Source of the DNA: Planctomycetia bacterium | Lineage (GTDB): Bacteria; Planctomycetota; Planctomycetia; Pirellulales; Thermoguttaceae | NCBI GenBank assembly: GCA_030539295.1 | Contig: JAUNSJ010000001.1 | Location: forward strand, 1-64,000 | Direction of reading: 5' to 3' | DNA length: 64,000 nucleotides | In this document: in pieces, positions 2,857-62,854 of the stretch | Numbering within the stretch: position 1 is the stretch's first letter | How the letters are laid out: every line of letters starts with the position of its first letter | Notes under the pieces: generated by a model | Told to the model about the DNA's origin: nothing | Database searches by the model: none | Seen by the model: the letters and a program-made list of their open reading frames with translations, nothing else | Translations under genes and position numbers: made by a program

Positions 2857-3702
2857 ATGACAATAAAATCAATCGTACTGGTGAAACAGGTGCCGGATAC
2901 GTCCAACATAACGGGCGAGGCGATGAAGGAAGACGGAACGATCAATCGAGCGGCGTTACCGACGATTTTTAATCCGGAAGATGCTCACGCGTTGGAAGCG
3001 GCATTGGACTTAAAAGATCGGTACGGAGGTACGGTCACGGTCATGACGATGGGACTGCCGAAAGCGGCGGACGTTTTGCGAGACTGTCTTTATCGAGGCG
3101 CGGACCGCGGGATTCTGCTGACAGACCGACGAGCGGCGGCAAGTGACACGTTGGCAACGAGTTACATTCTGGCACAAGCGGTTAAGACGGCAGGTGAGTT
3201 TGATTTTGTTTTCTGTGGTCGTCAGGCAATCGACGGGGATACGGCCCAGGTGGGGCCTCAATGTGCGGAAAAGCTGGGTCTTCCGCAAGTAACGTACATG
3301 GAAAAGATTGAGGAAGTCGTTGACGGTTTTGCGGTCATAAAGAGAAATATCGGGAACGGCTGGGAGCGAGTCCGTGTAAAACTTCCCACACTCGTGACGG
3401 TTGTGGAGACGGCGAACACGCCTCGTCCGTGGTCGGTCAAGAACGTTGTGCGTAATAAGCACAAGCGTGTTCCCTTGGAAGTGGGCGAAGGTGAACTGGC
3501 GCCCGGCGACCGGATTGAGCAGTGGTCGCTGGATGACGTAAGTGCGGACCTGAACCGTTGCGGACTGGCAGGCTCGCCGACGAAAGTTCATCGGATACAA
3601 TCGATTGTCCTGAAGAAGGAAGGGTTTACGGAGATTCTGGCCACGCAGGAGGGCATCAATGGTCTGATTCATGAACTTGTCCGCGATCGGACGCTAGGAT
3701 AA
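2857..3702 (+). CDS. etfB: Electron transfer flavoprotein beta subunit.
   Basis: MTIKSIVLVKQVPDTS...NPEDAHALEAALDLKDRYGG...VTVMTMG is the canonical EtfB/FixA N-terminus. The ATG at 2857 has GGAG upstream; the track ORF begins at an upstream GTG at 2824. Confidence 0.85.
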   Translation: MTIKSIVLVKQVPDTSNITGEAMKEDGTINRAALPTIFNPEDAHALEAALDLKDRYGGTVTVMTMGLPKAADVLRDCLYRGADRGILLTDRRAAASDTLATSYILAQAVKTAGEFDFVFCGRQAIDGDTAQVGPQCAEKLGLPQVTYMEKIEEVVDGFAVIKRNIGNGWERVRVKLPTLVTVVETANTPRPWSVKNVVRNKHKRVPLEVGEGELAPGDRIEQWSLDDVSADLNRCGLAGSPTKVHRIQSIVLKKEGFTEILATQEGINGLIHELVRDRTLG

Positions 3703-3790
3703 AATGAGCAAAATAAACCAGGGGCATGGCGGGTTGAAGAACCTTCAGTTTGCTTTTTTGCCTGCCCTTGTTAAGAGGAAAGAGGAAGCT

Positions 3791-4819
3791 ATGATAGAGA
3801 AGAATCCCAACGGAGAAGTCTGGGTCTTTGCGGAACAGGAAGACGGAAAACTTCAGGATGTTGTTATAGAATTGTGCGGTAAGGCACGTGACCTTGCCGA
3901 CCGACTTCAGACGAAAGTGGGCGCGGTTCTGCCGGGCCACAATGTGGAAAACGCGGCGAAAGAGCTGATTATGTGGGGAGTCGACAACGTCTATTTAATA
4001 GACGATGCCAAACTGGCGCGATTTACCAGTACGCCCTATGCGCACGTCATGACAGAAATGATCAAGAGGCATCGTCCGCAAATTGTGCTCTACGGGGCAA
4101 CGCCCTTAGGACGAGACCTGGCGCCGCGTATTGCCTCGGCCACGCGAAGTGGAATGACTGCCGACTGCACCGACTTACAGATAGACGACGTTCCAGACGC
4201 AAAGACGAAAGAGGTTTATAAAGACCTCCTGCTCCAGATACGGCCGGCGTTCGGCGGTAATATAATCGCGACAATTGTCAATCCGTTCTGGTGGCCGCAA
4301 ATGGCGACTGTGCGGGAAGGCGTAATTCCGAAGCGAGAGCCGGATATTTCGCGCCGTGGCGAGATTGTTCGTGAGATGATTCCGATCGACGATGCCATGA
4401 TGCTCGTTGAGATTATTGAGCGTCATGTACAGCCGCGGCGAGTAAATCTTAAGGGTGCGCGAATTATTGTGGCCGGGGGTGCCGGAGTTGGCAGTCGCGA
4501 CAATTTCACGAAGATCTTCGACCTGGCCGGCGCGTTAGGCGGAGCGGTCGGGGCATCCCGGGCAGCCGTCGACGGCGGTTTCGTCAGCCACGACTATCAG
4601 GTAGGACAAACCGGGACTACGGTCCGCCCTGCCCTTTACATCGCCTGTGGTATAAGCGGCGCGGTTCAACACCGGGCAGGTATGCAGGAATCTGCCAAGA
4701 TTATTGCCATTAACAGTGACCCGGACGCGCCCATCTTTTCTGTCGCTCATTATGGAATCGTTGGTGACCTGAATCAGGTGATTCCCATGATGATTAAGGC
4801 CTTCAAAAGGCGTGACTAA
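3791..4819 (+). CDS. etfA: Electron transfer flavoprotein alpha subunit.
   Basis: The C-terminal FAD-binding region (IVAGGAGVGSRDNF...ALYIACGISGAVQHRAGMQESAKIIAINSDPDAPIF) is diagnostic of EtfA/FixB. Strong RBS (GAGGAAAGAGGAAGCT) before the ATG at 3791. Confidence 0.85.
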   Translation: MIEKNPNGEVWVFAEQEDGKLQDVVIELCGKARDLADRLQTKVGAVLPGHNVENAAKELIMWGVDNVYLIDDAKLARFTSTPYAHVMTEMIKRHRPQIVLYGATPLGRDLAPRIASATRSGMTADCTDLQIDDVPDAKTKEVYKDLLLQIRPAFGGNIIATIVNPFWWPQMATVREGVIPKREPDISRRGEIVREMIPIDDAMMLVEIIERHVQPRRVNLKGARIIVAGGAGVGSRDNFTKIFDLAGALGGAVGASRAAVDGGFVSHDYQVGQTGTTVRPALYIACGISGAVQHRAGMQESAKIIAINSDPDAPIFSVAHYGIVGDLNQVIPMMIKAFKRRD

Positions 4820-4850
4820 ACGAGACTCATGATATAAAGGACCCAAACCC

Positions 4851-6584
4851 ATGCCGAATTTTTTTCAGGATAATAAGGATATACAATTTCTTTTCGACTA
4901 CTTCGATTTGAAAGAACTGGCCGAACTTCAGGAGCGTAACACGCCTAACGGTAATGCTGACTGGCTGCCCCGCGGACTCGACGATGTGGTCGATACCTAT
5001 CGGACCGTGCTGGATATTGCCGGTGGTATTGCCGGCGATACGATCGCGCCGAACTCGGAACAGGTGGACCTCGAAGGCAATACGCTGAACGAGAACCAAA
5101 CGGTAACACTGCATCCGCTGGTGCAAGAGAATCTAACAAGAATGGGCAAGGCCGACCTGCTCGGTTTTACTCTGCCGCGCAAGTACGGAGGGATCAACTG
5201 CCCGGTCCTCATCTATACAATGGCGACGGAGATGGTTGCCCGGGGCGACTGCTCTTTTATGAATATGTTCGGTCTGCAAGGGATAGCCGATACGATTTAT
5301 GCCTTTGCGTCGGAGGACATCAAGGACGAATATTTGCCGAAATTTGCCGCGGGTGAAGTGACCGGAGCGATGGTCTTAACGGAACCCGACGCCGGTAGCG
5401 ATCTTCAGGCAGTGCGTCTGCGAGCGGAGCAGGATGATTCGGGGCAGTGGCATTTAAATGGCGTCAAGCGTTTTATTACCAACGGCTGCGGCGAAGTACT
5501 TCTCGTTCTGGCGCGTAGTGAACCGTCGATTGTGGACGGTCGTGGCTTGAGTCTGTTCATAGCCGACCGTGGTCCCACAGTACGAGTGCGTCATCTGGAA
5601 TCGAAATTGGGAATTCATGGGTCGCCGACGTGCGAGCTGGTCTTTGATAATACGCCATGCCGGTTGATAGGAGAGCGTCAGCGAGGACTAATAACCTACG
5701 TTCTGGCCCTGATGAACGGCGCCCGATTGGGCGTGGCGGCGCAGGCGTTGGGCGTTGCGGAATCGGCGGCCCGGCTCGCACGCGATTACGCCGCGTCCCG
5801 AGAGCAGTTCGGGGCACCCATTGAACGTCTTGCTCCTGTGGCTGAAATGGTCGCTGATATGCAGATTATGATTGAGGCGGGTCGTGCCTTGGCTTATGAG
5901 ACGGCTCGCGTTTGCGATATTGAGAATAATTACAATCGTCTTCTCGACCGCGATAATGAGGGCCTCTCGGAGGAAGATAAGAAGGCCATGAAGCAGAAGT
6001 CGCGTGCCCTGAAAAAGCTCAACGCCATGCTCACGCCCATGAGTAAATATTATTGCGGCGAAATGAGTATAACCGTGGCGACCAATGGGATTCAGGTTCT
6101 CGGCGGAAGTGGCTATACGAAAGACTATGCGGCCGAACGCTATCTGCGAGACGCACGCATTACCACGATCTATGAAGGCACGAGCCAACTCCAAGTGGTT
6201 GCCGCCATCCGCGGTCTGACCTCTGGCGTTTTCCAGAATTACATTTCCGAATTCGAAAGTAAGAGTTATGAGGACCCGACGCTTGTGGAACTTCGCGACG
6301 TGCTCACTGGCGCGCGGGCCGAATTGGACCACGCCATTAGTACGGCCAAGGCCAACGGTGGTGCTTATATCGACCTGGTGGCCCGCAAAATCGTTGACGC
6401 CGGTATTGCCATTCTGATCGGTCACTACCTGCTCGGCCAGGCAACGAAATGCGAACGTAAGAAGAAAGTGGCTTCCTGTTTCATTCGGCGCAACCGTCCG
6501 GTGATTACCATGAACTGTCAACAGGCGGAAAGTGGGAATACACAAATTTTGGACGAGTTCGCGACCATTATCTATCGTCGTTAA
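4851..6584 (+). CDS. Acyl-CoA dehydrogenase family protein (577 aa, long form with a C-terminal extension).
   Basis: ACAD catalytic-domain motifs (GAMVLTEPDAGSDL, FITNG, GARLGVAAQALGVAESAARLARDYAASREQFG, YEGTSQLQ). It lies directly downstream of etfBA, suggesting a functional Etf/ACAD unit. Confidence 0.85.
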   Translation: MPNFFQDNKDIQFLFDYFDLKELAELQERNTPNGNADWLPRGLDDVVDTYRTVLDIAGGIAGDTIAPNSEQVDLEGNTLNENQTVTLHPLVQENLTRMGKADLLGFTLPRKYGGINCPVLIYTMATEMVARGDCSFMNMFGLQGIADTIYAFASEDIKDEYLPKFAAGEVTGAMVLTEPDAGSDLQAVRLRAEQDDSGQWHLNGVKRFITNGCGEVLLVLARSEPSIVDGRGLSLFIADRGPTVRVRHLESKLGIHGSPTCELVFDNTPCRLIGERQRGLITYVLALMNGARLGVAAQALGVAESAARLARDYAASREQFGAPIERLAPVAEMVADMQIMIEAGRALAYETARVCDIENNYNRLLDRDNEGLSEEDKKAMKQKSRALKKLNAMLTPMSKYYCGEMSITVATNGIQVLGGSGYTKDYAAERYLRDARITTIYEGTSQLQVVAAIRGLTSGVFQNYISEFESKSYEDPTLVELRDVLTGARAELDHAISTAKANGGAYIDLVARKIVDAGIAILIGHYLLGQATKCERKKKVASCFIRRNRPVITMNCQQAESGNTQILDEFATIIYRR

Positions 6585-8024: not shown

Positions 8025-8168
8025 GAATTTTCGCAAAAAACATTCACAAATGAATGGCTGATGATTGACATGCGATTATCGGTAGAGTAAAATGGAGGTA
8101 TGAAAACTATGCGTTGTAACCGAAACACTTATTTTACCCGGCTCCGGTCGCTCGGGGGATTCCCTGCT
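8025..8168 (+). repeat. Copy 1 of a ~143-bp direct repeat carrying promoter, RBS and the first ~23 codons of an ORF.
   Basis: Near-identical to 9633..9776, with a few mismatches. Contains TTGACA (8065-8070), a 17-nt spacer, TAAAAT (8088-8093), GGAGG, then ATG. Confidence 0.85.
8065..8093 (+). promoter_or_regulatory. Sigma70-like promoter (TTGACA-N17-TAAAAT) inside repeat copy 1.
   Basis: Read directly: ttgaca tgcgattatcggtagag taaaat, followed by ggagg and ATG. Confidence 0.55.
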
Positions 8169-8438
8169 TACAGGCGACAAAACAGCTATGTAGTCTGTAT
8201 TCAGCACAGTTACGACAACGCCGTCAGTCACACGTATCGAAACGACCCCGCCGTAGCCTGCCGCAGCCAGGTTTTCGACAAATACGACACCTGCGACGAT
8301 CGCTGTAACGTCATTATGCAATTAAATTCCATAATTTCCGTGTTGCGACAAATCTGTTGCGTGCCAGACTACAGACATAGTACTATGATCGGTAAGGGCC
8401 GCGACCAAATTATGACATGGCGCAAAGGATGGAGATGA
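8100..8438 (+). CDS. Small protein (112 aa). Its N-terminus MKTMRCNRNTYFTRLRSLG is shared with the ORF at 9708.
   Basis: Starts inside repeat copy 1 and diverges after about 23 aa. Possibly a degenerate toxin-tip paralog. Confidence 0.4.
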   Translation: MKTMRCNRNTYFTRLRSLGGFPAYRRQNSYVVCIQHSYDNAVSHTYRNDPAVACRSQVFDKYDTCDDRCNVIMQLNSIISVLRQICCVPDYRHSTMIGKGRDQIMTWRKGWR

Positions 8439-9632: not shown

Positions 9633-9776
9633 GAATTTTCGCAAAAAACTTTCACAAATTGACGATTTATGATTGACATGCGATTATCGGTAGAGTAAAA
9701 TGGAGGTATGAAAATTATGCGTTGTAACCGAAACACTTATTTTACCCGGCTCCGGTCGCTCGGGAGATTCCCTGCT
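9633..9776 (+). repeat. Copy 2 of the ~143-bp promoter/leader repeat.
   Basis: Near-identical to 8025..8168. TTGACA (9673-9678), 17-nt spacer, TAAAAT (9696-9701), GGAGG, ATG at 9708. Confidence 0.85.
9673..9701 (+). promoter_or_regulatory. Sigma70-like promoter (TTGACA-N17-TAAAAT) inside repeat copy 2.
   Basis: Same sequence as copy 1. Confidence 0.55.
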
Positions 9777-10277
9777 CGGAAACGCCAAAAAAATGTCAGC
9801 ATTTGCTCCGACTGCGTCTCAGATCACGACAGCACCTTAGACGATCGCTACACCTGCGCCACATTCTACGCCCTCAACCTCCTATTCACAGACAACTTCG
9901 CAACAAAAAGAATTTCAAGTGCCCACACCTTGACGAGAACCTTCGCCGGTCAGGTCTACGATAGAGAAGCCGGCATTATGCTCTACCGAAATCGGTATTG
10001 GCCTCGGACGCTGGGGCGGTTCGTGACAAGAGAGCCAATTGGGAATCAAGGGAAAGATATTAGTATTAATCGTTACGTTGATAACGTCCCGGTGAAGTCT
10101 ATTGAGGCGTTTGGCCTTAAGCTTCCCCGTGCTTCCAATATTTTTTACCAATCCTTGACTGCTTCGCGTCAGCGTTCCTCCCCTTTGGTCAAAAAGGTAT
10201 GCTTAGCACCGGCCCTGTTTATTATTTCACGTGCAACTGGTAAATGTGTTCAATCATTTAACCGAACAAAACTGTGA
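9708..10277 (+). CDS. Small protein (189 aa) containing an RHS-repeat-associated core motif followed by a ~50-aa variable C-terminal tip. Resembles an orphan polymorphic-toxin C-terminal module.
   Basis: FAGQVYDREAGIMLYRNRYWPRTLGRFVTREPIGNQGKDISINRYVDNVPVKSIEAFGL matches the RHS core consensus (..GQ.YD.E.GL.Y.RARYYDP.LGRF.S.DPIG..GG.NLY.YV.NNPVN..DP.GL). The N-terminal ~23 aa are encoded by the repeat. Confidence 0.6.
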   Translation: MKIMRCNRNTYFTRLRSLGRFPARKRQKNVSICSDCVSDHDSTLDDRYTCATFYALNLLFTDNFATKRISSAHTLTRTFAGQVYDREAGIMLYRNRYWPRTLGRFVTREPIGNQGKDISINRYVDNVPVKSIEAFGLKLPRASNIFYQSLTASRQRSSPLVKKVCLAPALFIISRATGKCVQSFNRTKL

Positions 10278-23612: not shown

Positions 23613-23746
23613 ACTTGTGTTCCTCTGTCTTGGTTCGTGAACTCGGAGGGATAACGGCGCCGCGTTTCACCTTGAAAAACGGCTTAATAACCGAAATCCT
23701 TCCACATTTCTCTATTTTACACGCTTTTCCCTTTCGTGTCAACACC

Positions 23747-32733: not shown

Positions 32734-33244
32734 GCAGTTTGCCTAACTCAATCGTTTTACACTTTCCAAGTTTTGTTGTCATGTCTCTGTCTCCTTTTCA
32801 AGGTGAAATTGAAAGTAAATTTTCGTGTGTTCACAAGCACATTTTGGCCGCACTGCTGCCAAGTTTCGTTTGTTTCGTTACGTTTTCATTTTGATTCTCC
32901 TCACAAGTCAAAAGTTTTCATGTTGACGAGAGACAAGTTTTTTCGTTGTCTCGGGCCTCGTTAAATTCAATCTTCTCACATTATAATACAATCGAAAGAA
33001 GATGTCAAACCAATTTTGCGAAAAATCGACCCTAATTTTGCGCAATTTTTTAGGGGTTAAATTGGGTACTCGTCCTTGTTTTTACGAGGTTTTCGTATAT
33101 TTTCGGGAGTGAGTCATAAAATCTGGGGCCATAAATTTTTTGTGAGCCCGAGGGCCGCGACCGACAAGGCAAAATCCACGCATCTGGCAATGAACTTGCC
33201 ACGGGGTGAATTCCGGGGCAAGTCCATTTCGGTAAAACGCAAAG

Positions 33245-36667: not shown

Positions 36668-36765
36668 TGAATTAAACCTCCTTATTAGTTTTTTAGTTTA
36701 AAAACACTTCCTTTTCAGGAACAATAGTGACATTATACCAAGCGGCGTCGGGCAAGTCAATTAAA

Positions 36766-36803: not shown

Positions 36804-37257
36804 GTCTTGTTTTTCGTCTTTAAGTGCTTGTTATACATTAGGATACATTGACTTTTGAGAGACGACAGATAGGTCAGGGAATCATCTGTCGGCATCGTGC
36901 CGGTTCGGTTTTGGTCCCGGAGCTGCGGTGTTCTTGCGGAGGAGTCGTGGAGTCCGCATAAAGGTACGGGTGCCGAAAAAACGCGGAAAAAACAATAGAA
37001 TATCGAAAATTTTTTGAATTACAGGGAATAAAGAACTTGACATAGAAACACGCGGCAAGTATAATGGAGATGTCAAGGTGGGGACCAGCATTGACAGCGT
37101 AATATGCCAGGAACAGATCGGACGGGGGAATTGTTTCCGAATGCTCAGAGTCCTGATACTCTACTGTCATATTTATTGGAATTCCACTTTCTGCTGTCAA
37201 TCACAGGAATATTAAGATCGCTACACGGAGCTGGATCGGGTTCCGTGCCATTGGGTC

Positions 37258-50260: not shown

Positions 50261-50514
50261 TACAAACCTATCTATTTTATCTATTATTCCCATTTTTTAT
50301 TTCTCGCATAAAAATTATCCCTTTTTTGCGAGGTACTGCGATTAAAATTCCCCTAAAATGTCTCAAAACAGCAGAAGTCCTCTAAACGCTACTGCCGATA
50401 TATTCGATAAGAATGCCCGTTAGATTAGAACCGCTTGGTCGAACCAGACGTGCAGGTTCCCGTATGCCTGTTTGGCCATGGATTTTTATCGCACTTTCCC
50501 ATGAAAGAGCCACT

Positions 50515-53500
50515 ATGAAAAAATCGACAATAGAAAAAGCGTCCAAAGTTCGTCGCAAGGGTACGCCAATTGGGCAACGTGGCAAGATGGCTATTACAAT
50601 GGCGTTGGCTGCGGTACTATTCGGAGCGGGCAATGCCTGGGCCGAGGATGGTTATCTTATCAAAAACGATGATGAGACCACGCATTATGCCTCGCTTTTC
50701 GAGGCCAATCCGAGCGACGGCGACTTAGTCATCGTCGCTGGCGGTAATGTGGAAGGCGGGGGCGCGATAGAATACACCTCCAGTACCTCCCCGGCCAGCA
50801 ACATAACCCTTCGATCGGACGACGATAACGTGGTTCGGAAAATCGACGCGGGCGGTACCGCACGGCTATTCTATTCCGATGTATCAGAATTTGCCCTGAC
50901 GCTCAACATTGCCAACCTGGAATTCACCAACGGGAACGGCACTTCCGGCGGATTGATTTACACACCAAGCTCCGGTGCGGTTACCATCAACGGCAGTAAT
51001 GCGTTTTTCACGAACAGCCATGCTTACGGCGGGGGAGTCCTATCCGCTGGTGTGGTCAATATTAGCGGTTCTAATACGTTTACCAATAACGTGGCAGAGC
51101 ATTCTATCGGTGTGCAGGGCGGCGCGATTTACGCCAGCAGTAATATTGTGCTTGAAGGAAAGCAATCCACGGCGATCTTCTCCGGAAATACTGTTACTGT
51201 AGGTTCAACCACTCATAGAAACGATATTTACGCGGAAAATAACATTACCATAAAGGACGGCGGACGATACAGCTTCGACGGTGGAATCACCACGGGGAAA
51301 GATTTTGACACCTTCACGATCCAGGACGGTTCCAACGTTATCTTTGGCACAAACAGTATTACGACTATTCAGGGAAAGACGCTTCTGGACAACGCCCATC
51401 TCACGATTCAAGGTTCCGATAGCACCACGTTTGACGTCGGCAGGCTGGAAATTGGGAAAGACAGCCAGAACTCCATCGTGTTTGAAAGCACGTATTCCAA
51501 CGAGGGGAGGACCGTCATGGAAGGCGAGAACCTTGTCTCCGCTCTGACCCAGGGCAACATGCAAATGTTCGTAAAAACCACTAAAGGCGACTTCGCGTAT
51601 ATTCGCGAAATTAGCGGCACGCAAGTCATCGTCAACGCCGTGGAAGAAGGAACGAGCACGTTCAATCTCGTGCGGGGCAAGGGTTTGGTCGAGGATTCTC
51701 AAATATACTATTTCGTTGGCTGGTCCAAAACCTTTGGCGGTCACTACTATAGTGCAACCCCGTCAGGAACGAAAACGATTCTGCCCGGCGATCGGATTGT
51801 TGTAACCGCAGACGGATACATGGGAACCTCCGAATTACCGAAATTCGGAGAAGACTTCGCCCTGTCGATTCAATCCAATACGAACGAAGTACGTACGATT
51901 ACCGCGGAGACCAAAACAGTCACGAAGGGTTACGGAAAAATCCTGACCGGTTACGGAAAAATCACGTTGAACCTTAGCCAGATTAAATTCGACAACGACG
52001 ATGTATCGAATACGGGTGCGTTTATCGTTTCAAATAGCGTCGTGGTGAACGGTTCGGGCGAGTTTGCCAATAATGATTCAAGCGGAGATAGCGGCGGCGC
52101 GATTACAGCAGACGATGCCGTTGAGCTGAACGGAACGATTCAATTTATGGGCGAAAAGGCGCAGACCGGACTGGCGTTCACAAATAACCGAGCAACCAGC
52201 GGCGGGGCAATTTCCGGCAATAGCGTAACGATTTCAGGTTCCAATCTTTATGTGTACGACGGAAAGAAAACGTATGCCAACACGTTCACGGGCAACGAGA
52301 TTAGCGGCGGCAGCGGCGGGGCCGTTTATGCCAGTGCCAGCGTAAGTCTTTCCGGCTCCAACCTGTTTGATAAAAACGTCTCAGAGAGCGATGGCGGCGC
52401 GATTTATTCCGGAGGAACCGTCTCGGTCTCCGGCGAAAACAAGTTCACCGATAATAAAGCGAGTACCGGGCAAGGCGGCGCGATTTGGGCTGCGAGCAAT
52501 GTGACTTTTTCCGACACGGACTCCACAACAACCTTCGCTGGAAACACAGCCAACGGCGTTAAAAACGACGTGTTCTCCCAGAACGGCAATATTACCTTTA
52601 GCGGCGGTACGTACATTCTCGGCGGCGGTTTGGTCGCGGACGGTAACCCTGACGACAAGAACAGTGGTATTATAAATGTCACCGGAGGAGCCTACGTTAA
52701 TCTTGAGGATGGAACCATATCCTCCGCCAGGAATTTGGTGATTGATAATAACGCGACGCTGGACATTGACCTGAACGCGAACAACAAGGTATCGGCACTC
52801 AACGCGGTGGACGTTGCCGACGGCGCGACCGAATTGTTCTTATCCGGAACCGGCTCGATAAACGAAGGCAATATGGATGTGTACCTTGAAAAAACCGACG
52901 GCATGACCAACGGTTACTACCTCGTCGCAGCCGGCAATTTTTCCGGGAACGATACCAGCAACGTGACACACAATAGCTGGGATTTCGCCGCAAGCCGCAT
53001 TTCCGCAACGGATACGGGACTCTATCTGGGCGTTCTGCTCAATGGGGGCGCTGTCCTGCGCAGCGACGCCAGCGGAACACTGAACGCGGCCGATACATTT
53101 GACGCCGTGTTCGAAGACGGCTTGGGCGCAGTGGCTACTGGCAATGTGATTACGATTAGCAATGACGTTCATGCGGAAAACGCCATTAATCTGAACGCAG
53201 ATGTCAATGAACTGACGATTCAGTCCGATGATTCGGCACAACGGCGAACCATTACGGCCACAGGCATTACCGGTCACCGATTCTTAAACTTTGAAGGGGA
53301 CTGCACGGTCAATACGACGAATATCATATTCGAGAACAGTGGAACTGATCTCGTCCAAGGCGGCGCGATTTTCTCGAACGGTAACCTGACGATCAATGGA
53401 ACTACGGAATTTAAGAATAACCAGGCTGAACTCGGCGGCGCGATTTACGCCGTAGGAAATGTCACGTTTGCCGAAGGATCCCATATAGATTTCAGCGGCA

Positions 53501-55206
53501 ATACAATGGGAAGCGGCGAGAACGAGACTCCGAACGACTTGTACGTTGCGCCCACACTCGGTGGTTCCAGCGTTATTACCATCGAAAAAGATGCGATCGT
53601 CAACTTCCACGGTGGTATCGATTGCGGAGCTGTTGGAAATACGTCGCTTGTCATTGACCAAGGTGCTCATGTTACGTTCAGCGACGACGCGACTGTCAAT
53701 ATCAGCGGCGAAATGCATATCAACTCGTCCGATGTGACCTTCGGTGACGACGTCGTGATGGATTTCCAAAACGGGGTCATCGCTGGCGTGAACGTTTCGC
53801 AGTCGTTGAGTGGGAATGTTTCGATTGCCAAAGAGCTGGGCGCGACGTTTGACCTTGAGAATAACAGTAACAGTTCTATTGACCTGCGAGACGCGAGTAA
53901 CGTAACGATCTCGGAGGATGTGGCCGTGAAAATCTACGATGACAACGGTAACGTGCTGTCCGCCAAAGATTTCAAGGGAAAACTTCCCGCCTCGGGCAAT
54001 ACGTGGACGCTGATTTACGGGAAAAACGACGCCCTGGCAAACGTGGGCGGCGAGGATGTCTACGAATCGCTCCTGTACAAAGTCCAACTTGGGCTGGACG
54101 GTCAGAACTTCGTGATAAAATCCGAAAAGAAAGATCTGCAACCCAGCGCGATAGAGCGCAACGCGGAAGCCGCGAGACAATTGTTCGGTGACGAGATTTT
54201 CGATGTTAAAACAGAAGACGAAGCAAGACTGGTCGTCAGCGGAGCCACCGGAGAAATCTATGCCTCGACGGCCAACGCTCAAGTTCAGCGACTGAATTAT
54301 CTCAATACGATGCTCGTAAACCGGCTCCTTGGCCATGAGGATTCGCAAGCGCGGGTCGAGTCAACGGTTCGAGGTCAGTGTGCCGAGCATTGCCCGGCTG
54401 CAAATCTCTGGGCCAGTGGTTACGGAATCGGTGGCTTTACGGACATGGACGGTTCTTACGTTGCCGGCTACGACTACAAAGCAGGCGGCATGCTCGCCGG
54501 GGCCGATTGGCAAGGAGCCAACGCGCAATGGGGACTCTTTTGTGGATATGGGCAGACCGGTATCGACGCGGCCAATGCCGATGTCCATTCGAAAGATACC
54601 ACGCTCGGTGGCTACCTCCTCTGGGACAGTCGGCTCGGAGGTGGGTATACGACTCTCCTTGGCAACGTTTCCTTGAGCGATGTCTCCGGAACCCGAACGA
54701 TTTCCGCCGACTCGTACGCGAACAAGTTCGATGCCCGACAGTCGTCCTGCTATCTGGAAAAGGGTTGGAAGTACGAGAATAACCTTGGAGTCATGGTTAA
54801 TCCTTATGGCGTTTTGCAATATATAGGCTACAACGCAGACGCTACGGGCGATGATGTCCTTGCCATCGACGAAGTCAACTACGATTCCTTGCGTACGAAA
54901 GCCGGAGTGCGTTTGGACCGGAATTTCTGCCGCAACGGGAATCTGTGGACGCTTTCCTCCGGGTTCGCCTGGAATCATGAACTGCTTGACACGAGTGCCA
55001 ATTTCATTGCCACAACCAACTTCGGAGGACAGCCAGTGGCGGCAACAATCTTCGGAAACGAGGCCGGCCGCGACTGGTTCGAATACACCGCGGGCGCGAA
55101 AGTGGCTTTGACAGAAAACGTCACGCTCTCCGGCGATTATTTCCTCTTCGTCAATAAGCGATCGACCCTCAATGCCGGTATGGGCACGCTAACCTGGCGT
55201 TACTAA
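50515..55206 (+). CDS. Giant autotransporter adhesin with Chlamydia-Pmp-type passenger repeats (GGAI / FxxN) and a C-terminal autotransporter beta-barrel.
   Basis: Signal region MKKSTIEK...MAITMALAAVLFGAGNAWA. At least 8 GGAI(Y/W/F/S) repeats with FTNN/FTDN/FKNN/FDKN motifs. C-terminal beta-barrel (LWASGYGIGGF...GMGTLTWRY, terminal aromatic). The 50413 start is probably upstream of the real one. Confidence 0.85.
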   Translation: MKKSTIEKASKVRRKGTPIGQRGKMAITMALAAVLFGAGNAWAEDGYLIKNDDETTHYASLFEANPSDGDLVIVAGGNVEGGGAIEYTSSTSPASNITLRSDDDNVVRKIDAGGTARLFYSDVSEFALTLNIANLEFTNGNGTSGGLIYTPSSGAVTINGSNAFFTNSHAYGGGVLSAGVVNISGSNTFTNNVAEHSIGVQGGAIYASSNIVLEGKQSTAIFSGNTVTVGSTTHRNDIYAENNITIKDGGRYSFDGGITTGKDFDTFTIQDGSNVIFGTNSITTIQGKTLLDNAHLTIQGSDSTTFDVGRLEIGKDSQNSIVFESTYSNEGRTVMEGENLVSALTQGNMQMFVKTTKGDFAYIREISGTQVIVNAVEEGTSTFNLVRGKGLVEDSQIYYFVGWSKTFGGHYYSATPSGTKTILPGDRIVVTADGYMGTSELPKFGEDFALSIQSNTNEVRTITAETKTVTKGYGKILTGYGKITLNLSQIKFDNDDVSNTGAFIVSNSVVVNGSGEFANNDSSGDSGGAITADDAVELNGTIQFMGEKAQTGLAFTNNRATSGGAISGNSVTISGSNLYVYDGKKTYANTFTGNEISGGSGGAVYASASVSLSGSNLFDKNVSESDGGAIYSGGTVSVSGENKFTDNKASTGQGGAIWAASNVTFSDTDSTTTFAGNTANGVKNDVFSQNGNITFSGGTYILGGGLVADGNPDDKNSGIINVTGGAYVNLEDGTISSARNLVIDNNATLDIDLNANNKVSALNAVDVADGATELFLSGTGSINEGNMDVYLEKTDGMTNGYYLVAAGNFSGNDTSNVTHNSWDFAASRISATDTGLYLGVLLNGGAVLRSDASGTLNAADTFDAVFEDGLGAVATGNVITISNDVHAENAINLNADVNELTIQSDDSAQRRTITATGITGHRFLNFEGDCTVNTTNIIFENSGTDLVQGGAIFSNGNLTINGTTEFKNNQAELGGAIYAVGNVTFAEGSHIDFSGNTMGSGENETPNDLYVAPTLGGSSVITIEKDAIVNFHGGIDCGAVGNTSLVIDQGAHVTFSDDATVNISGEMHINSSDVTFGDDVVMDFQNGVIAGVNVSQSLSGNVSIAKELGATFDLENNSNSSIDLRDASNVTISEDVAVKIYDDNGNVLSAKDFKGKLPASGNTWTLIYGKNDALANVGGEDVYESLLYKVQLGLDGQNFVIKSEKKDLQPSAIERNAEAARQLFGDEIFDVKTEDEARLVVSGATGEIYASTANAQVQRLNYLNTMLVNRLLGHEDSQARVESTVRGQCAEHCPAANLWASGYGIGGFTDMDGSYVAGYDYKAGGMLAGADWQGANAQWGLFCGYGQTGIDAANADVHSKDTTLGGYLLWDSRLGGGYTTLLGNVSLSDVSGTRTISADSYANKFDARQSSCYLEKGWKYENNLGVMVNPYGVLQYIGYNADATGDDVLAIDEVNYDSLRTKAGVRLDRNFCRNGNLWTLSSGFAWNHELLDTSANFIATTNFGGQPVAATIFGNEAGRDWFEYTAGAKVALTENVTLSGDYFLFVNKRSTLNAGMGTLTWRY

Positions 55207-55435: not shown

Positions 55436-56686
55436 TTATTTGCGTGCCAAGGAGGTTCGTATCTCCAGCAGAGGCTGCCCGGTTTCCCGTGCGATTCGAC
55501 GCAATTCTTCATATTCCGGCTTGAATCGCTGCTTACCATCAGGCAAAACGACGGTTTTTCCCTCGACCGGTCCGAAATTTGTTTCGATAATTTCTTTAGA
55601 GCGTTTTAATTCATAGCGATCGGTCGGACGCACGCGGAGGCCAATGGCGGGGGTCTCTTCGAAGAGGAGTCTGGCAACCTGTTCCGCGTTTTCCGGGTCA
55701 CACAGAACGCCCAGAAGGAATCCGGGGCGCTGTTTTTTCATCATGATGGGCGTCGTCCAGATATCGCGTGCGCCTAAGGCAGTTAGCCGTTCCCAGACGA
55801 AGCCGACCAGTTCGCCGTCGCAATCGTCGAGATTGGTCTCTACTATACACAGAGGCGTTTTGGAGACGTTCGGCGTGTCGATAAAAAGGGGTTGTTGGCT
55901 TCCATGAGGAGTGGAAAAAGCGTCGTCAGGAGAGTTTTGAGCATGACAGGCAACGGGATCCATCAGAAAAAGCGTGAGGACGTTCGCCTGTTCCGCAAGG
56001 TCGCGGCCGCCGGCACCGACTCCGTTTGTCTGCACAACCGCCAGAGGCATACTGCCGTAACTTGTGGCGTAGTGGGTTGTTAAAACAGCACCAGTGGGCG
56101 TTGCCAGTTCGAAAGGAATCTCTGTTCCGAAGCTGGGAACCCCTTTGAGTAACTCCGCCGTGGCCGGCGCGGGTATGGAACAGAGGCCATGTGCCATTTG
56201 CAGGGTCCCTGTTCCGGTTGCTATTGGCGAGGCAAGAATTTGCGAGACGCCTTTGTTCGCCTTGAGCCATTCAAAAGCGGCAACTCCGCAGAGAATGTCG
56301 GCAATGGAATCGGCGGCGCCGACCTCATGGAAGTGAATTTCGTCCGGAGTTTTCCCGTGGACATGAGCCTCGGCCGCGGCAAGCTTCTGAAAAACGGCGC
56401 TCGATTGCTCTTTGGCGGGTTCCGAAAGAGAAGAGCGACCAATGATCGTAAGAATATCGGCCAAATGGCGGTGAGCGTGCTCGTGGGGGAGCTGCACATC
56501 GACCTTGCAGGCGCGAAACGCACCGCGAATGACCTCTTGTCGGGTGAGCGTGAGTCCGGAAATGCCCAGGGAAGCAACAATATTCTGGAGTAATGAAAAT
56601 GGGACACCTAAATCAACAAATGCTCCAAGAAACATGTCGCCGCTGACCCCATGGGATGCGTCAATATATAAAATCGCTTCTTTCAT
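55436..56686 (-). CDS. larC: LarC-family (DUF111/TIGR00299) nickel-insertion protein.
   Basis: MKEAILYIDASHGVSGDMFLGAFVDLGVP matches the LarC N-terminus (M..LYLDCFSGISGDM.LGAL.DLG). The start at 56686 was chosen over the 601-aa ORF extension, which runs antisense into the next gene and its promoter. Confidence 0.75.
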   Translation of the reverse strand: MKEAILYIDASHGVSGDMFLGAFVDLGVPFSLLQNIVASLGISGLTLTRQEVIRGAFRACKVDVQLPHEHAHRHLADILTIIGRSSLSEPAKEQSSAVFQKLAAAEAHVHGKTPDEIHFHEVGAADSIADILCGVAAFEWLKANKGVSQILASPIATGTGTLQMAHGLCSIPAPATAELLKGVPSFGTEIPFELATPTGAVLTTHYATSYGSMPLAVVQTNGVGAGGRDLAEQANVLTLFLMDPVACHAQNSPDDAFSTPHGSQQPLFIDTPNVSKTPLCIVETNLDDCDGELVGFVWERLTALGARDIWTTPIMMKKQRPGFLLGVLCDPENAEQVARLLFEETPAIGLRVRPTDRYELKRSKEIIETNFGPVEGKTVVLPDGKQRFKPEYEELRRIARETGQPLLEIRTSLARK

Positions 56687-56710
56687 GATAAACTTCTCTT
56701 TAACCTTAAC

Positions 56711-56739
56711 TTGACAAAACTTGTTTTCGGAGATATAAT
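56711..56739 (+). promoter_or_regulatory. Perfect consensus sigma70 promoter (TTGACA-N17-TATAAT).
   Basis: ttgaca aaacttgttttcggaga tataat, read directly, 39 nt upstream of the ATG at 56778. Confidence 0.6.
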
Positions 56740-56777
56740 GTCGGGAGTCGTATTTTATTTTACGCGAAATCGAGGCC

Positions 56778-58403
56778 TTGACAATGACACCAGAAGAAAA
56801 AAATGAGAAACCGGACCATTGGATGTTTCTATCGGAATCCCTGGATGGTTTTAATACGGATGAGAACACGATGAGAACAGAGCAAGACAAGCAAGAGACG
56901 GAAACCCCACAAGAGCAGCAACCGCGGCGTCGTGGCCGCCCCCGCAAACGCCCTTTAGAGGCAGCCGAGCCGACCGCCGAGACACCGAAACGTCGCGGCC
57001 GTAAGCGGAAAGTCCGTGAGGAATCCGAGCAGCTTCCGCTTGAGGCAATCGTCCCGGGCGGAGAGCAGGAGACCCGCGTTGACTTGACCATTGGCGATGT
57101 GGACACGATCCAAAAGCCACGGCGGCGCGGGCGCCGCCCGGCCAGTGAACGAGTGGAGCAAAAGGCACCTGCCGCGGACCCCTGGACCGTTTTGGCCTCG
57201 CAAATTGGTGAAATAGGAACGGCTCCGGCCAAACCGGCCACACCCCCAATTCAGAGTATTCTTCCGGAAATTCCTGTCGTTGCCCCGGCACCAGGCGACC
57301 CAGCCCTGGAGGTCTTTTTTGCCGGTGACGAAGAACCATTGGAAATCGACTGGGGAAAGCCTCCGGTCAAGAGCGAATCTGTTACGGTCGTAGAGGAGTC
57401 TGCCCCGAGCTTTGCCCCTGCGCGGCCAGCACAACCGGAATTGGTCAAGCCAACATTAGACCCGGCGATACTCTTTACCGCGGGCGATGAAGAACCCCTG
57501 ACGATCGACTGGGGGCGTTCGCCCAAAAAGGCAGCGAAACCGGAAGCCCCTGCGGAACCGGTGGCCAGAGCAGAAGAAACAATGGTGGAACCTGGCGTGA
57601 CCGAGACGGACCGTGGTCGTCGAGACTTTCCCGCGAGAGACCGTGGCGAGCGTAACGAGCGTAACGACCGCGGCGAGCGACGTGGCCGCCGTGACCGCAA
57701 TGATCGAAGTGACCGCAATGATCGTCGTGACCGTGACCGGGGCGAGGGACGTGGCGAGCGGCAGGAGCGGGATGATCGGTCACGTTCTTCGCAACCTTCT
57801 CTTCTCCCGACGGATGACGAGCAACTGATGCGTGATGTTCCTGTTGACGTGTTAGAATCCGCGAATACGCGTGGCCGGCGAGGCAATCGGAACCGTCCAG
57901 AGGAACGAGAGCAGCCTGTTGCCAATAGGGAAACTGTCGTTAACCTTGAAAAGGAGAGTCCATTTTCGTTTGAGGAGCCGGCGGATCGTCCGCAGGGGCG
58001 TGACGCAGGCGAGCGAGGACGGGGACGGCGTCGAGGCGGTCGTGATACGCGACGGGATGACCTTCGGAAGGAAGAGCCGATACAGACGCGAGATAAAACG
58101 GCCGACAGTTCGGACCAATCGTTTTTTAAATTCGCCAGCGACGAAGAGTTTGCCTGGCCGGCGATTTCGGAAGACGCGGAAGTGGTTCGAGACGAGCGTT
58201 CGCGGAGCCGCGAGCCACGACGCGACCGCAGTCGTAGTCGAGACGAAGGCGCAGCGAAGGAATCCGCTCCGGAATCACGAGGACGCGGCGGGAGTCGTTC
58301 GCCAGCGGAACCGCGTCCGGAACGGCCCGGCTTGAGTTGGGATGACGCTATTCTGAACGTTGTCCAGTTCAATCTCGACCGCCATGGGAACAGAAAAAAA
58401 TAA
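56778..58403 (+). CDS. Highly charged, probably disordered protein with AT-hook-like RGRP motifs, two copies of an 18-aa AGDEEPL(E/T)IDWG repeat, and an Arg/Asp/Glu-rich (RD/RE repeat) tail.
   Basis: PRRRGRPRKRP and KRRGRKRK (AT-hook-like). FFAGDEEPLEIDWGKPP and LFTAGDEEPLTIDWGRSP. DRGRRDFPARDRGERNERNDRGERRGRRDRNDRSDRNDRRDRDRGEGRGERQERDDR. This frame was chosen over the overlapping antisense ORFs because of the promoter and start context. Confidence 0.5.
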   Translation: MTMTPEEKNEKPDHWMFLSESLDGFNTDENTMRTEQDKQETETPQEQQPRRRGRPRKRPLEAAEPTAETPKRRGRKRKVREESEQLPLEAIVPGGEQETRVDLTIGDVDTIQKPRRRGRRPASERVEQKAPAADPWTVLASQIGEIGTAPAKPATPPIQSILPEIPVVAPAPGDPALEVFFAGDEEPLEIDWGKPPVKSESVTVVEESAPSFAPARPAQPELVKPTLDPAILFTAGDEEPLTIDWGRSPKKAAKPEAPAEPVARAEETMVEPGVTETDRGRRDFPARDRGERNERNDRGERRGRRDRNDRSDRNDRRDRDRGEGRGERQERDDRSRSSQPSLLPTDDEQLMRDVPVDVLESANTRGRRGNRNRPEEREQPVANRETVVNLEKESPFSFEEPADRPQGRDAGERGRGRRRGGRDTRRDDLRKEEPIQTRDKTADSSDQSFFKFASDEEFAWPAISEDAEVVRDERSRSREPRRDRSRSRDEGAAKESAPESRGRGGSRSPAEPRPERPGLSWDDAILNVVQFNLDRHGNRKK

Positions 58404-58673
58404 GGCGCAACGAGTCGCCTTGGTCGTATGCAACAAGCCGAATAATCGTTCTGGTTATCCGGCTTGTTGCTTTTGTGTCTGTCTTGTAACTGCGCGCAAT
58501 TCGTCGCATGTCTGAATGAGGTGAACTTCCCGATACGGCGCTGAGACTGAAAAAAACGGAGGCTGCCTCTTAAAAATCTGCACCTTCCCGCTCCGTGGCG
58601 TCGCGACGGGGTAGACTCGGTTTGTTGCTGTCTGCGGCGTGGCGTCTATGCGGTAGTCAGGCTCGCTCATGGC

Positions 58674-59021
58674 GTGAGACAGGCAAAGTCGGGTAAGGAC
58701 AGATATATTAGCGACTTGGGAGACCTCTTTATGAAATTGGCCATTTATGACAATCAGGACGATCTTTGTGATACGCTGGAGGTAGCGACGTCACGGCCGG
58801 ACCAGGTACCGGCCATGTCGATTATGGCGGACCGCATTTGGCAAGTACTGCGTCGGCGCGGCCAATTGAGTATAAGCGGGCTGGCCCGTGAGATCGGCGC
58901 CCCTCGCGATTATGTTATGGAGGGGCTCGGCTGGCTCGGCTGCGAAGGCCGGATAACGGTGCACGAAGAGGCACGGGTTCGAGTCGTAACCCTCCGCCCG
59001 CAAGAGTATTCCGTGGAATAA
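58674..59021 (+). CDS. Small putative winged-helix DNA-binding protein.
   Basis: ADRIWQVLRRRGQLSISGLAREIGAPRDYVMEGLGWLGCEGRI resembles a wHTH recognition helix followed by a wing. The true start may be an internal Met (58734 or 58815). Confidence 0.35.
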   Translation: MRQAKSGKDRYISDLGDLFMKLAIYDNQDDLCDTLEVATSRPDQVPAMSIMADRIWQVLRRRGQLSISGLAREIGAPRDYVMEGLGWLGCEGRITVHEEARVRVVTLRPQEYSVE

Positions 59022-59182
59022 ACAGACCGCCTGTTTTCTTTTTCTCAAGTTCACGTTGACACGGACGGAAAGAGCATGTATAATCTTTTCGTGGTGACTG
59101 CTGTCGGGCAGAGCTGGTCAAGAGGCGGCTCGACAGAAAAACCGAAAGCTGAAACCGTGACAACAAGAACAAAGGAGAAAAG

Positions 59183-62476: not shown

Positions 62477-62854
62477 GCAAGTTGCCTGGTTATGGGATTA
62501 GGTTAAGGTCGACAATAGGACAACACAGTTCCTGTTGCTCTTGCCTCCTTGATGCTCGTTGGAGAAATGCCGCGTTTGCAGTTTTCATGTATCATTGTAC
62601 CAGAAATTCTTCCTTTATCAACAAGGCGGAAGAGATTACCTCGAAAGACAACCGAGCGACAAATTTAACGCACTCTTGACGTCGCGGCGAGGAGGGCTTA
62701 TAATAATAGTTACCGAAGAAAAAATTATATTATGCGGTCAACAATCATTTTCCAGCGTTCGTGCCTGATTCCAATTAAGAATCAGGCTAACCGGGGCATA
62801 ATAGGGCGTGAAAATGAGTACAAGTGAAACATCAGAAAGTAGGGAGTCTGCGAA

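Follow-up and report, generated by a model that had tools for sequence, protein, structure and literature searches.

The window, a 64,000-nt stretch of DNA, comes from a Planctomycetia MAG, which agrees with the PVC origin proposed in the initial annotation. The locus contains a gene for a disordered protein and, divergent from it, the gene for LarC (Table 1). The LarC ORF carries a 185-codon 5' over-extension. Downstream of the disordered-protein gene lie a DUF2582 winged-helix gene and then a GDSL lipase gene. The disordered-protein gene is real and monocistronic, being equipped with a promoter, a ribosome-binding site and a terminator of its own.

Table 1. Features of the disordered-protein locus, in coordinates of the window.
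Feature	Position	Strand	Details
LarC, nickel-pincer cofactor nickel insertion protein (divergent neighbour)	55436..56686	-	Pfam PF01969, E 3.4e-125
Sigma-70-type promoter	56711..56739	+	TTGACA (56711-56716), 17-nt spacer, TATAAT (56734-56739); agrees with the consensus definition
Ribosome-binding site (Shine-Dalgarno), GAGG	56772..56775	+	8 nt before ATG 56784; read from the sequence
Disordered protein CDS, 539 aa	56784..58403 (including stop)	+	NCBI MDO5552145.1, Q4G68_00155; orthologues align in the same frame
N-terminal conserved motif, residues 1-23	56784..56852	+	W13 and S19-L20, W..L[AS]ESL; alignments A1, A3
Basic cluster 1, residues 47-57	56922..56954	+	PRRRGRPRKRP, canonical AT-hook; GRP core flanked by Arg/Lys
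Basic cluster 2, residues 69-78	56988..57017	+	KRRGRKRKVR
Basic cluster 3, residues 111-119	57114..57140	+	KPRRRGRRP; aligns with KPKKKVKK, RPKKKIKK and KPSRGRRKK in orthologues
Conserved island, residues 132-145	57177..57218	+	DPWTVLASQIGEIG; DPvxxlvSQIexI in orthologues
Antisense ORF, 373 aa	57251..58372	-	Judged not to be a gene; no Pfam match
Peptide motif copy 1, residues 175-196	57306..57371	+	LEVFFAGDEEPLEIDWGKPPVK; conserved in L051, L052 and the start of L053/L061
Peptide motif copy 2, residues 229-248	57468..57527	+	ILFTAGDEEPLTIDWGRSPK; second copy also in L052 (FFADTDDTIVIRWG)
Alternating Arg/Asp/Glu tract, residues 276-333	57609..57782	+	23 R, 0 K, 18 D+E
Second Arg-rich tract, residues 401-430	57984..58073	+	RGG-like segment GERGRGRRRGGRD
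Third mixed-charge tract, residues 465-512	58176..58319	+	RSRSR and RGRGG segments
C-terminal conserved helix and basic tail, residues 516-539	58329..58400	+	GLSWDDAILNVVQFNLDRHGNRKK; BLASTP 1e-8 to L052, 6e-4 to L051
Intrinsic terminator	58430..58478	+	11-bp GC-rich stem with inner stem, then UUUUGUGU; from folding

The plus-strand ORF spans 56778/56784 to 58403. Its product had been given as 541 aa, but 539 aa is preferred, because both the public annotation and the alignment of the orthologue N-termini (MTPEEKNEKP versus MTKDKNEQKP) favour ATG 56784 as the most likely start. The strand and frame first claimed hold: the coding frame has the top codon log-likelihood among the six frames, the public annotation places the gene on the plus strand, and conservation among the orthologues runs in the plus frame. 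The antisense ORFs pointed out earlier also exist (373, 162, 159 and 102 aa). They are by-products of composition, because the reverse complement of GAN/CGN-rich codons is stop-free. Although these long stop-free frames could suggest that the 373-aa ORF, or nothing at all, is expressed in place of the plus ORF, this is extremely unlikely: the 373-aa frame scores poorly by codon usage and has no family match, the orthologues keep the peptide motifs, the start and the C-terminus in the plus frame, and the conserved promoter is oriented in the plus direction.

The exact TTGACA-17-TATAAT promoter reported upstream of the gene is present, and transcription would start near position 56746. Two claims attached to this promoter do not hold here, namely that such a sequence is rare in any genome and that an exact match by itself signals very strong transcription. 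Specifically, the window holds four exact and six one-mismatch copies, versus 0.21 expected, and all ten of these matches (at most one mismatch, 64 kb) lie upstream of ORFs. The other genes driven by an exact copy encode a DUF1559 protein, a CheB/CheR fusion and a GDSL lipase. In this genome, promoters close to the consensus are the rule. Because ordinary genes share the exact consensus, an exact match alone is no mark of exceptional expression and does not establish high abundance of the disordered protein. Codon usage of the gene shows no clear bias of highly expressed genes, with CGT mildly enriched and with the ribosomal-protein reference set absent from the window. No description of a Planctomycete promoter consensus was found in the literature. 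Just past the stop codon, a hairpin at 58430-58470 followed by UUUU has the features of an intrinsic terminator, with a minimum free energy (MFE) of -34.2 kcal/mol and z = -5.58 (0 of 200 shuffles as stable).

The protein is a polyampholyte of 61 kDa with a calculated pI of 5.5. It is rich in Arg (15.2%), Glu (12.6%), Pro (10.2%) and Asp (8.5%), and contains two His, no Cys and no Tyr. The charged-residue fraction is 0.41 over the whole protein, and the net charge is about 0, slightly negative. AlphaFold predicts helices only at residues 292-319 (low-confidence) and 519-535, with a mean pLDDT of 41.8 and no predicted fold, consistent with the disorder proposed initially. The protein sequence has neither a signal peptide nor a transmembrane segment. 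Scans with Pfam, NCBIfam, PDB sequences and profiles, Rfam and a tRNA search gave zero matches, so that the protein has no recognisable domain; the earlier statement was that it has no enzymatic one.

Three AT-hook-like clusters had been described in the N-terminal part. All three peptides are present (residues 47-57, 69-76 and 112-119), but only PRRRGRPRKRP is canonical, while the other two are without the GRP core. A search for the AT-hook profile (Pfam PF02178, SMART SM00384) gave no Pfam match at E <= 10, which is a weak negative, since the model is very short and the HMMER filters may drop it. Among the relatives, RGRPRK of cluster 1 is identical in L053 (KRGRPRK) and degenerate in L061 (KRSRPAKK), and L051 and L052 have K-rich clusters where the window protein has RGRP. 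The GRP core is missing from two of the five family members.

The duplicated peptide and the Arg/Asp/Glu-rich tract of about 60 residues are where they had been seen. The two peptide copies, FFAGDEEPLEIDWGKPP (residues 178-194) and LFTAGDEEPLTIDWGRSP (residues 230-247), are 74% identical in DNA over 43 nt, with many synonymous differences (GAC/GAT, CCA/CCC, TTG/CTG, GGA/GGG). Copy 1 is further supported by matches to the relatives (BLASTP 3e-7 and 3e-5; hhalign E 1.6e-5). In the PDB, the motif peptide weakly matched the tail at the C-terminus of human BRX1 (E about 1-4) and a blade repeat of Photorhabdus 8q82_A (E 0.31 as a sum over repeats that contribute 1-2 bits apiece). A profile of five motif instances missed both, and both were attributed to chance. 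The tract at residues 276-333 has a charged fraction of 0.71 and a kappa of 0.02, and its DNA holds 9- and 18-nt tandem repeats. Arginine-enriched mixed-charge domains are defined by a 60-residue window with a charged fraction of at least 0.7, a positive/negative ratio of 1 +/- 0.3 and Arg as the basic residue (10.1101/771592). Windows starting at residues 273-274 (273-333) fall within this definition, with a charged fraction of 0.70 and a ratio of 1.21; the corresponding tracts of the orthologues, at 0.58 and 0.67, are below the published threshold. For an RS domain (Ser+Arg of at least 0.6 over 60 residues), the richest stretch examined, residues 465-512, contains 13 R and 8 S, about 0.44 and below that level when counted on its 48 residues instead of the published window of 60.

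Exhaustive sequence searches returned the query protein alone. Specifically, nothing else came up among 5.8 billion proteins in word-indexed searches, whether the query was the full protein or its low-complexity-masked form (E <= 10), nor among 1.84 billion representatives in an exhaustive phmmer search. Back-translated pattern scans of GTDB genomes with the protein and of JGI metagenomes with alignment A1, and a degenerate DNA pattern for SWDD[AT]I..VV..N, retrieved no relatives. No description of such a protein was found in the literature. Synteny with the divergent LarC gene, by contrast, yielded four orthologues, of which two are full-length and the other two N-terminal fragments, located in L051, L052, L053/L054 and L061. 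Their identity is about 25%, and colinear BLASTP matches link the window protein to these positional orthologues (L052, 1e-8 and 3e-7; L051, 3e-5 and 6e-4; L053, 3e-5). The LarC neighbours P0003, P0010, P0016, P0017, P0062 and P0014 are without a family member, and none of the LarC loci retrieved from GTDB (identity at most 40%) carries one. L034 contains an Arg-rich ORF of 559 aa, but this was dismissed as an antisense artefact because the genome is high in GC and the ORF overlaps another of 822 aa.

The five lineages (two of them represented by N-terminal fragments) share one order of modules: the N-terminal motif, two or three basic clusters of either the RGRP AT-hook or the Lys-rich type, a short island resembling a helix, the FF..D(E)EPLxIxWG peptide in two copies, a tract in which Arg/Lys alternates with Asp/Glu, and the C-terminal helix SWDDAI..VV..N..H..RK. 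Across about 600 kb of loci, the family motifs, including the C-terminal one, are confined to the orthologue genes. The charged fraction is steady among the orthologues (0.41-0.44), and the R/K ratio varies widely, broadly tracking GC content. The promoter is exact in L051, L052 and L053/L054 and has one mismatch in L061, so that, with the window, four of the five lineages have the exact consensus. Each relative's locus has just one exact promoter copy, that of the orthologue. Because the promoter is kept across lineages although the proteins are only ~25% identical, it is functionally meaningful. The protein is not a lone oddity: it belongs to a LarC-adjacent, previously undescribed family with several conserved short peptide motifs, whose members known so far all come from one small clade of Planctomycetes that are Thermoguttaceae-like and include at least one of gut origin. 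The conserved short motifs argue for specific partners, not only bulk charge effects. We consider this descriptive part, namely a real gene, a disordered product, and a conserved family and promoter, to be very likely correct.

Judged from its sequence, the protein probably binds DNA or RNA and recruits partners. As the best explanation, held tentatively, we propose that it is an abundant, multivalent nucleic-acid-binding scaffold associated with the nucleoid or with RNP. In this mechanism, the protein would be produced in large amounts, and the basic clusters would anchor it to nucleic acid, the DNA minor groove being somewhat likelier than RNA. The well-mixed Arg/acid tract would make weak multivalent contacts with itself and with nucleic acid, and the conserved aromatic-acidic peptides and the terminal helices would dock one or more specific folded partners. 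Anchoring, multivalent contacts and docking combined would give a nucleoid- or RNP-associated scaffold. The earlier idea of a nucleoid or RNA-condensate scaffold is plausible and fits this anatomy. The identity of RGRPRK between the window protein and L053, and the K-rich clusters that replace RGRP hooks in L051/L052, speak for nucleic-acid binding in the proposed mechanism. The kappa of 0.02, indicating well-mixed charges, counts against the mechanism, as it would be expected to favour expanded chains over strong self-association. The slightly negative net charge is unlike that of classical nucleoid proteins and also counts against a scaffold.

The protein could instead be centred on RNA, by chaperoning it, by taking part in ribosome assembly or associating with ribosomes, or by scaffolding an RNP condensate as the C-terminal region of RNase E does, minus the nuclease, and not be a DNA or nucleoid protein. 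RGG-like (GERGRGRRRGGRD, SRGRGGSRS) and RSRSR segments occur, the Arg-rich mixed-charge tract falls within the definition used for nuclear-speckle proteins, RNase E scaffolds likewise join short sites for client binding to a disordered, charged region (PMC13405055), and the protein is acidic overall, as is the BR-body scaffold (PMC13616956). However, the RGG and RS segments are unconserved in L051 and L052, the best-conserved basic element is the AT-hook or Lys-rich cluster, which is classically DNA-binding, and Pfam detects no S1, KH, RRM or nuclease domain. We regard an RNA-centred role as rather unlikely. That the protein is a hydrophilin or LEA-like stress protein, or a generic macromolecular crowder, abundant and disordered without a specific ligand, is very improbable. 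Its extreme hydrophilicity (charged fraction 0.41, no Cys or Tyr), the strong promoter and terminator, and the detection of homologues only in a narrow clade would suit such a protein, but several short islands, among them the Trp/Phe peptides and the C-terminal helix, stay conserved at an overall identity of about 25%, which argues for specific binding partners and not for bulk physical chemistry.

Two further explanations take the neighbouring genes as the guide. In two relatives the next gene downstream on the same strand is yajC, in the order IDP-yajC-secDF in L051 and IDP-yajC in L052, with no terminator-like site reported in between, which would suit an accessory of the protein-export machinery. 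This is very improbable, as 91 and 148 nt separate the gene from yajC, the window gene has its own strong terminator and is followed by other genes than yajC, and the protein lacks a signal peptide and a transmembrane segment. The head-to-head arrangement with larC holds throughout the five lineages (five of five), and the predicted promoters of the two genes overlap within the intergenic stretch of 97 nt, as they also do in L053. A functional tie to LarC and to the synthesis of the nickel-pincer cofactor, where the protein might for instance buffer metal as an acidic chain or be a regulator whose gene shares the divergent promoter region, is nevertheless highly unlikely: two His and no Cys make a poor set of nickel ligands, LarC genes of similar divergence elsewhere have no such neighbour, and the adjacency may be merely gene order inherited within the clade.

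Most known bacterial disordered scaffolds are tails of enzymes, for example RNase E, and to our knowledge dedicated, fully disordered scaffold proteins are still rare among bacteria. The present family is a compact set of modules, with alternation of AT-hook and Lys-rich clusters, a duplicated aromatic-acidic peptide, an Arg/Asp/Glu tract and a terminal helix, behind an exact consensus promoter kept across deep divergence. If the protein is indeed a nucleoid or RNP organiser, it bears on how nucleic acid is compacted or compartmentalised in PVC bacteria. The family also carries a methodological caution, as a protein that is an orphan by exhaustive sequence search had relatives that were exposed through gene order. 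The dense near-consensus promoters could render promoter prediction unusually reliable for this lineage.

The protein is reminiscent of HMGA and of the HMGA-like C-terminal domain of Myxococcus xanthus CarD, which are likewise unfolded and combine a basic RGRP element with acidic segments. Its RGRPRK is presumably identical to hook 1 of HMGA1. Among CarD orthologues, Lys-rich H1-like clusters can take the place of RGRP hooks (PMC4374960), and the present family makes the same exchange. It differs in several respects: the protein has one canonical hook instead of three or four, and so falls outside the definition; it has no CarD_TRCF RNA-polymerase-binding domain (Pfam); it is much longer and net acidic, with extra conserved peptides and a large mixed-charge tract; and no sequence homology is detectable.

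The tract at residues 273-333, in which all 23 basic residues are Arg, resembles the arginine-enriched mixed-charge domains of nuclear-speckle proteins (RD/RE repeats, U1-70K-type). Arg-rich mixed-charge tracts drive condensation (10.1101/771592), and that of the arginine-enriched domains depends on length (Greig et al., 10.1101/771592). Unlike the speckle proteins, the present one is bacterial and has no RRM, and the tracts of its orthologues are more Lys/Asn-rich. The alternation of Arg-rich segments and short conserved peptides along a charged disordered chain appears analogous to the scaffold region of RNase E, which organises the degradosome and BR-bodies through Arg-rich nucleic-acid-binding segments and short client-recruiting peptides (PMC13405055). 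Unlike RNase E, the protein stands alone, with no S1 and RNase E/G catalytic domain (Pfam, NCBIfam) and no membrane-targeting helix.

Lys-rich clusters of the relatives, such as KPKKKVKK, recall H1-like proteins, namely chlamydial Hc1/Hc2 and the N-terminal domain of Streptomyces DdbA, and the organism belongs to the PVC bacteria. A strong promoter would be in keeping with an abundant architectural protein (DdbA, PMC3643593). Hc1, Hc2 and DdbA are small and strongly basic, whereas the present family is net-neutral to acidic and four to five times longer, with no sequence match to them. Speculatively, and with low likelihood, the protein may be a stand-alone bacterial counterpart of eukaryotic HMGA or of the mixed-charge speckle proteins, an abundant disordered organiser that would condense with DNA or RNA and, via its two conserved FF..DEEPLxIxWG peptides and the terminal helix, draw a core machine into a compartment without a membrane, in a Planctomycete clade associated with the gut. 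The core machine could be, among others, the sliding clamp, RNA polymerase or ribosomal particles; the LxIxW core of FF..DEEPLxIxWG presumably resembles the hexapeptide motifs that bind the clamp.

The gene divergent from that of LarC, the nickel-pincer cofactor nickel insertion protein, is real. It is a self-contained transcription unit, because a promoter and a GAGG sequence 8 nt 5' of ATG 56784 precede its ORF, while a long hairpin followed by UUUU (z = −5.58 versus shuffles) lies directly 3' of its stop codon. The TTGACA-17-TATAAT promoter is present exactly as the initial annotation described it, and all the peptides quoted there are found in the product. The 541-aa length given there corresponds to a mechanical ORF of 541 codons from TTG 56778, which does exist, but the public annotation (MDO5552145.1, Q4G68_00155, from a Planctomycetia MAG) starts at ATG 56784 and gives 539 aa. 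The latter start is backed by the N-termini of orthologues (MTKDKNEQKP and MTKEKNQDD versus MTPEEKNEKP in the window protein).

A mis-called strand, with the 373-aa antisense ORF as the true gene, is effectively excluded. Antisense ORFs of 373, 162, 159, and 102 aa exist within the gene, as previously noted, because its dominant GAN and CGN codons give stop-free reverse complements. By codon log-likelihood trained on 26 confident window genes, the plus frame is top over the whole gene and nearly all 300-nt sub-windows, while the frame of the 373-aa ORF scores poorly. Comparison with colinear orthologues settles the frame as plus. The mechanical ORF of LarC extends 185 codons upstream of the true ATG at 56686, into the antisense strand of this gene, which creates a risk of annotating LarC, wrongly, as a 601-aa protein.

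Judged by sequence searches, the window protein belongs to no curated family. Pfam, NCBIfam, and PDB give no match for it or its orthologues, in line with the earlier view that it has no enzymatic domain. Word-indexed searches of 5.8 billion proteins, unmasked or with low-complexity tracts masked (E ≤ 10), and an exhaustive phmmer search of 1.84 billion representatives retrieved only the protein itself, and scanning GTDB genomes and JGI metagenomes with patterns retrieved no relatives. The nearest homologue of the adjoining, well-conserved LarC has 48% identity, indicating that the lineage is poorly sampled and that a fast-evolving disordered protein is expected to fall below detection at such a distance.

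We therefore read the LarC-divergent neighbours on contigs carrying the closest LarC homologues. These are proteins of 519 aa (locus L051) and 412 aa (L052), both without a Pfam match, and N-terminal fragments cut by the contig end at L053/L054 (a Thermoguttaceae MAG) and L061. Overall identity to the window protein is only 15–28%, and the proteins are colinear. Specifically, they have in common an N-terminal W..L[AS]ESL island, basic clusters at matching positions, a DPvxxlvSQIexI island, an Arg/Lys–Asp/Glu(/Asn) tract, and a C-terminal PSWDDAIxxVVxxNLxKHxxRK. The aromatic-acidic peptide SLExFFxxD(E)EPLxIxWGxSPxK occurs twice in the window protein and L052, and as one clear copy plus a degenerate DFDW in L051. 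Pairwise BLASTP of the window protein gives 1e-8 and 3e-7 against L052, 3e-5 and 6e-4 against L051, and 3e-5 against L053; hhalign gives E = 1.6e-5. A regular-expression search with the two strongest motifs finds only family genes in ~600 kb of fetched loci read in six frames, and nothing elsewhere in the whole window. L052 also has the peptide duplication, and the two window copies have 74% DNA identity across 43 nt, with many of their differences synonymous; the duplication is thus ancient and preserved as peptide sequence. A resemblance of the first copy to the C-terminal tail of human BRX1 (DPTADVFVTPAEEKPIEIQWVKPEPK) was rejected as chance (E about 1–4); a profile built from five motif instances failed to retrieve it.

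Other LarC loci of similar divergence are without such a neighbour, so the synteny is clade-limited, and orthologues were found only beside LarC at the four loci. The family is conserved and modular, was previously undescribed, and is restricted to a clade; its members are disordered proteins whose genes share a conserved consensus promoter. The source sample of L052 (SRR8986148, logan) is a tortoise-faeces metagenome, and a LarC homologue of the same cluster, P0124, has an accession from the series of the window MAG, which together hint that the clade is gut-associated.

Coordinates of promoters, genes, and other features (promoter match, TTGACA-N17-TATAAT with at most one mismatch)
Locus	Feature	Position	Detail
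Window	Promoter match	2559-2587	
Window	158-nt direct repeat, copy 1	8025-8182	
Window	Promoter match	8065-8093	
Window	158-nt direct repeat, copy 2	9633-9790	
Window	Promoter match	9673-9701	
Window	Promoter match	23714-23742	
Window	Promoter match	32980-33008	
Window	Promoter match	36732-36760	
Window	Promoter match	37037-37065	
Window	1597-aa protein gene	50413-55206 (+)	
Window	LarC mechanical ORF	55436-57241 (−)	
Window	Intergenic region	56687-56783	
Window	Promoter match, disordered-protein gene	56711-56739	TTGACA 56711-56716; TATAAT 56734-56739
Window	Predicted LarC promoter	56784->56757 (−)	TTGTCA-16-TAAAAT
Window	Aromatic-acidic peptide, first copy	57306-57371	Residues 175-196
Window	Terminal hairpin	58430-58470	
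Window	DUF2582 protein gene	58731-59021 (+)	
Window	Promoter match	59056-59084	
Window	Promoter match	62676-62704	
L051	Orthologue, yajC, fused secDF	3600-5622	Same strand
L051	Orthologue promoter	5770->5742	Exact
L052	Orthologue, yajC	344-2102	Same strand
L052	Orthologue promoter	2325->2297	Exact
L053	Similar overlap of −10 elements	595-650	
L053/L054	Orthologue promoter	650->622	Exact
L061	Orthologue promoter		TTGACC-17-TATAAT, one mismatch

The exact promoter had been regarded as rare in any genome, which does not hold here, and an exact copy does not on its own single out an exceptional gene. The window contains four exact and six one-mismatch copies (0.21 expected), all ten located 7–324 nt upstream of a same-strand ORF. 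The other exact copies precede genes for a DUF1559 protein, a CheB/CheR fusion, and a GDSL lipase, and the ordinary genes behind the ten matches also include those for a GH2 glycosidase and an HlyD-like protein. Such a remarkable density of near-consensus promoters appears to characterise whole genomes of the lineage. Two of the matches, identical over 29 nt, lie in a direct repeat (91% identity) that also spans the start of each of two ORFs (N-termini MK[TI]MRCNRNTYFTRLRSLG). Rfam and tRNA scans of the repeat gave no match; a duplicated leader, an unrecognised RNA, and a small gene are all possible readings.

In each of L051, L052, and L053/L054, the sole exact consensus copy is the promoter of the orthologue. 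Spacers and 5' leaders are unrelated, while the two hexamers and their spacing are retained as the protein falls to ~25% identity. This retention is good evidence of a promoter that is used and selectively maintained; high expression would fit but is not proven by it. The predicted LarC promoter faces the consensus promoter, with inferred start sites a few nt apart, so RNA polymerase binding at the two should be mutually exclusive, and transcriptional interference is possible. In L053 the −10 elements of the two promoters overlap in a similar way.

Composition (R 15.2%, E 12.6%, P 10.2%, D 8.5%; no Cys, no Tyr) and structure prediction indicate a disordered product of 61 kDa, with pI 5.5, charged fraction 0.41 (0.41–0.44 among full-length orthologues), and net charge per residue −0.02. 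Single-sequence AlphaFold gives a mean pLDDT of 41.8 and pTM of 0.18; beyond a low-confidence helix at 292–319, in the RD/RE tract, and a helix at 519–535, in the conserved C-terminus, it predicts no secondary structure. Arg:Lys is 15:4 in the window protein (gene GC 60%) versus 8:15 in L052 (GC 44%), and R/(R+K) is 0.78, above the 0.52 of other window genes. Of the AT-hook clusters listed by the initial annotation, the first is canonical, and the AT-hook core definition applies only once. Its RGRPRK is identical in L053 and degenerate in L061, with Lys-rich clusters instead in L051 and L052. The main RD/RE tract (23 Arg, 0 Lys, 18 Asp+Glu) alternates near-perfectly (kappa 0.02) and falls narrowly within the published mixed-charge-domain definition, which holds in the window lineage only, the tracts of orthologues lying below it. 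The tract grows by slippage, as short tandem DNA repeats within it (9 and 18 nt) reveal.

Non-specific DNA binding of the minor-groove type is classically signalled by basic clusters, AT-hook or Lys-rich, at conserved positions. The basic clusters would thus contact nucleic acid, DNA somewhat more likely than RNA, although an RNA- or RNP-specific role is a rival reading. HMGA-like and H1-like domains are reported as interchangeable in the CarD literature (reference 5 in PMC4374960). The Arg-rich mixed-charge tract may provide cohesive multivalent contacts, as such tracts do in eukaryotic speckle proteins (10.1101/771592), and charged disordered regions with short client-binding peptides organise bacterial RNP bodies (PMC13405055). 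The aromatic-acidic peptides and terminal helix would dock specific partners; their strong conservation points to such partners, which counts against the rival of a generic hydrophilin. Together, these elements favour, tentatively and by analogy, an abundant nucleic-acid-associated scaffold, with DNA the somewhat likelier ligand.

Two further rivals come from the neighbourhood. The orthologue is followed by yajC in L051 and L052 (gaps of 91 and 148 nt, with no terminator-like site reported), and this gene order, in these two loci only, would suggest a link to YajC-SecDF; in the window, however, the gene has a strong terminator and then unrelated genes. A link to LarC and nickel is at odds with a protein that has only two His and lacks Cys. 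The gene directly 3' of the terminator codes for a small DUF2582 winged-helix protein and has no counterpart in the relatives' loci. On the other side of LarC lies the gene for the 1597-aa protein, in which an autotransporter beta-domain is accompanied by faint repeats of the chlamydial polymorphic-membrane-protein type, features that are, to our knowledge, unusual outside Chlamydiae.

The finding is more structured than the initial annotation could see. It does not open a new category, since AT-hooks and charged tracts are already known from disordered proteins that bind nucleic acids; should the protein turn out to organise condensates or the nucleoid on its own and to serve a defined client, its interest would rise considerably. 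The window protein does not fit the definitions of HMGA/CarD, the RS domain, or RNase E, but its mode of action would resemble that of an HMGA/CarD-type protein or a mixed-charge scaffold.
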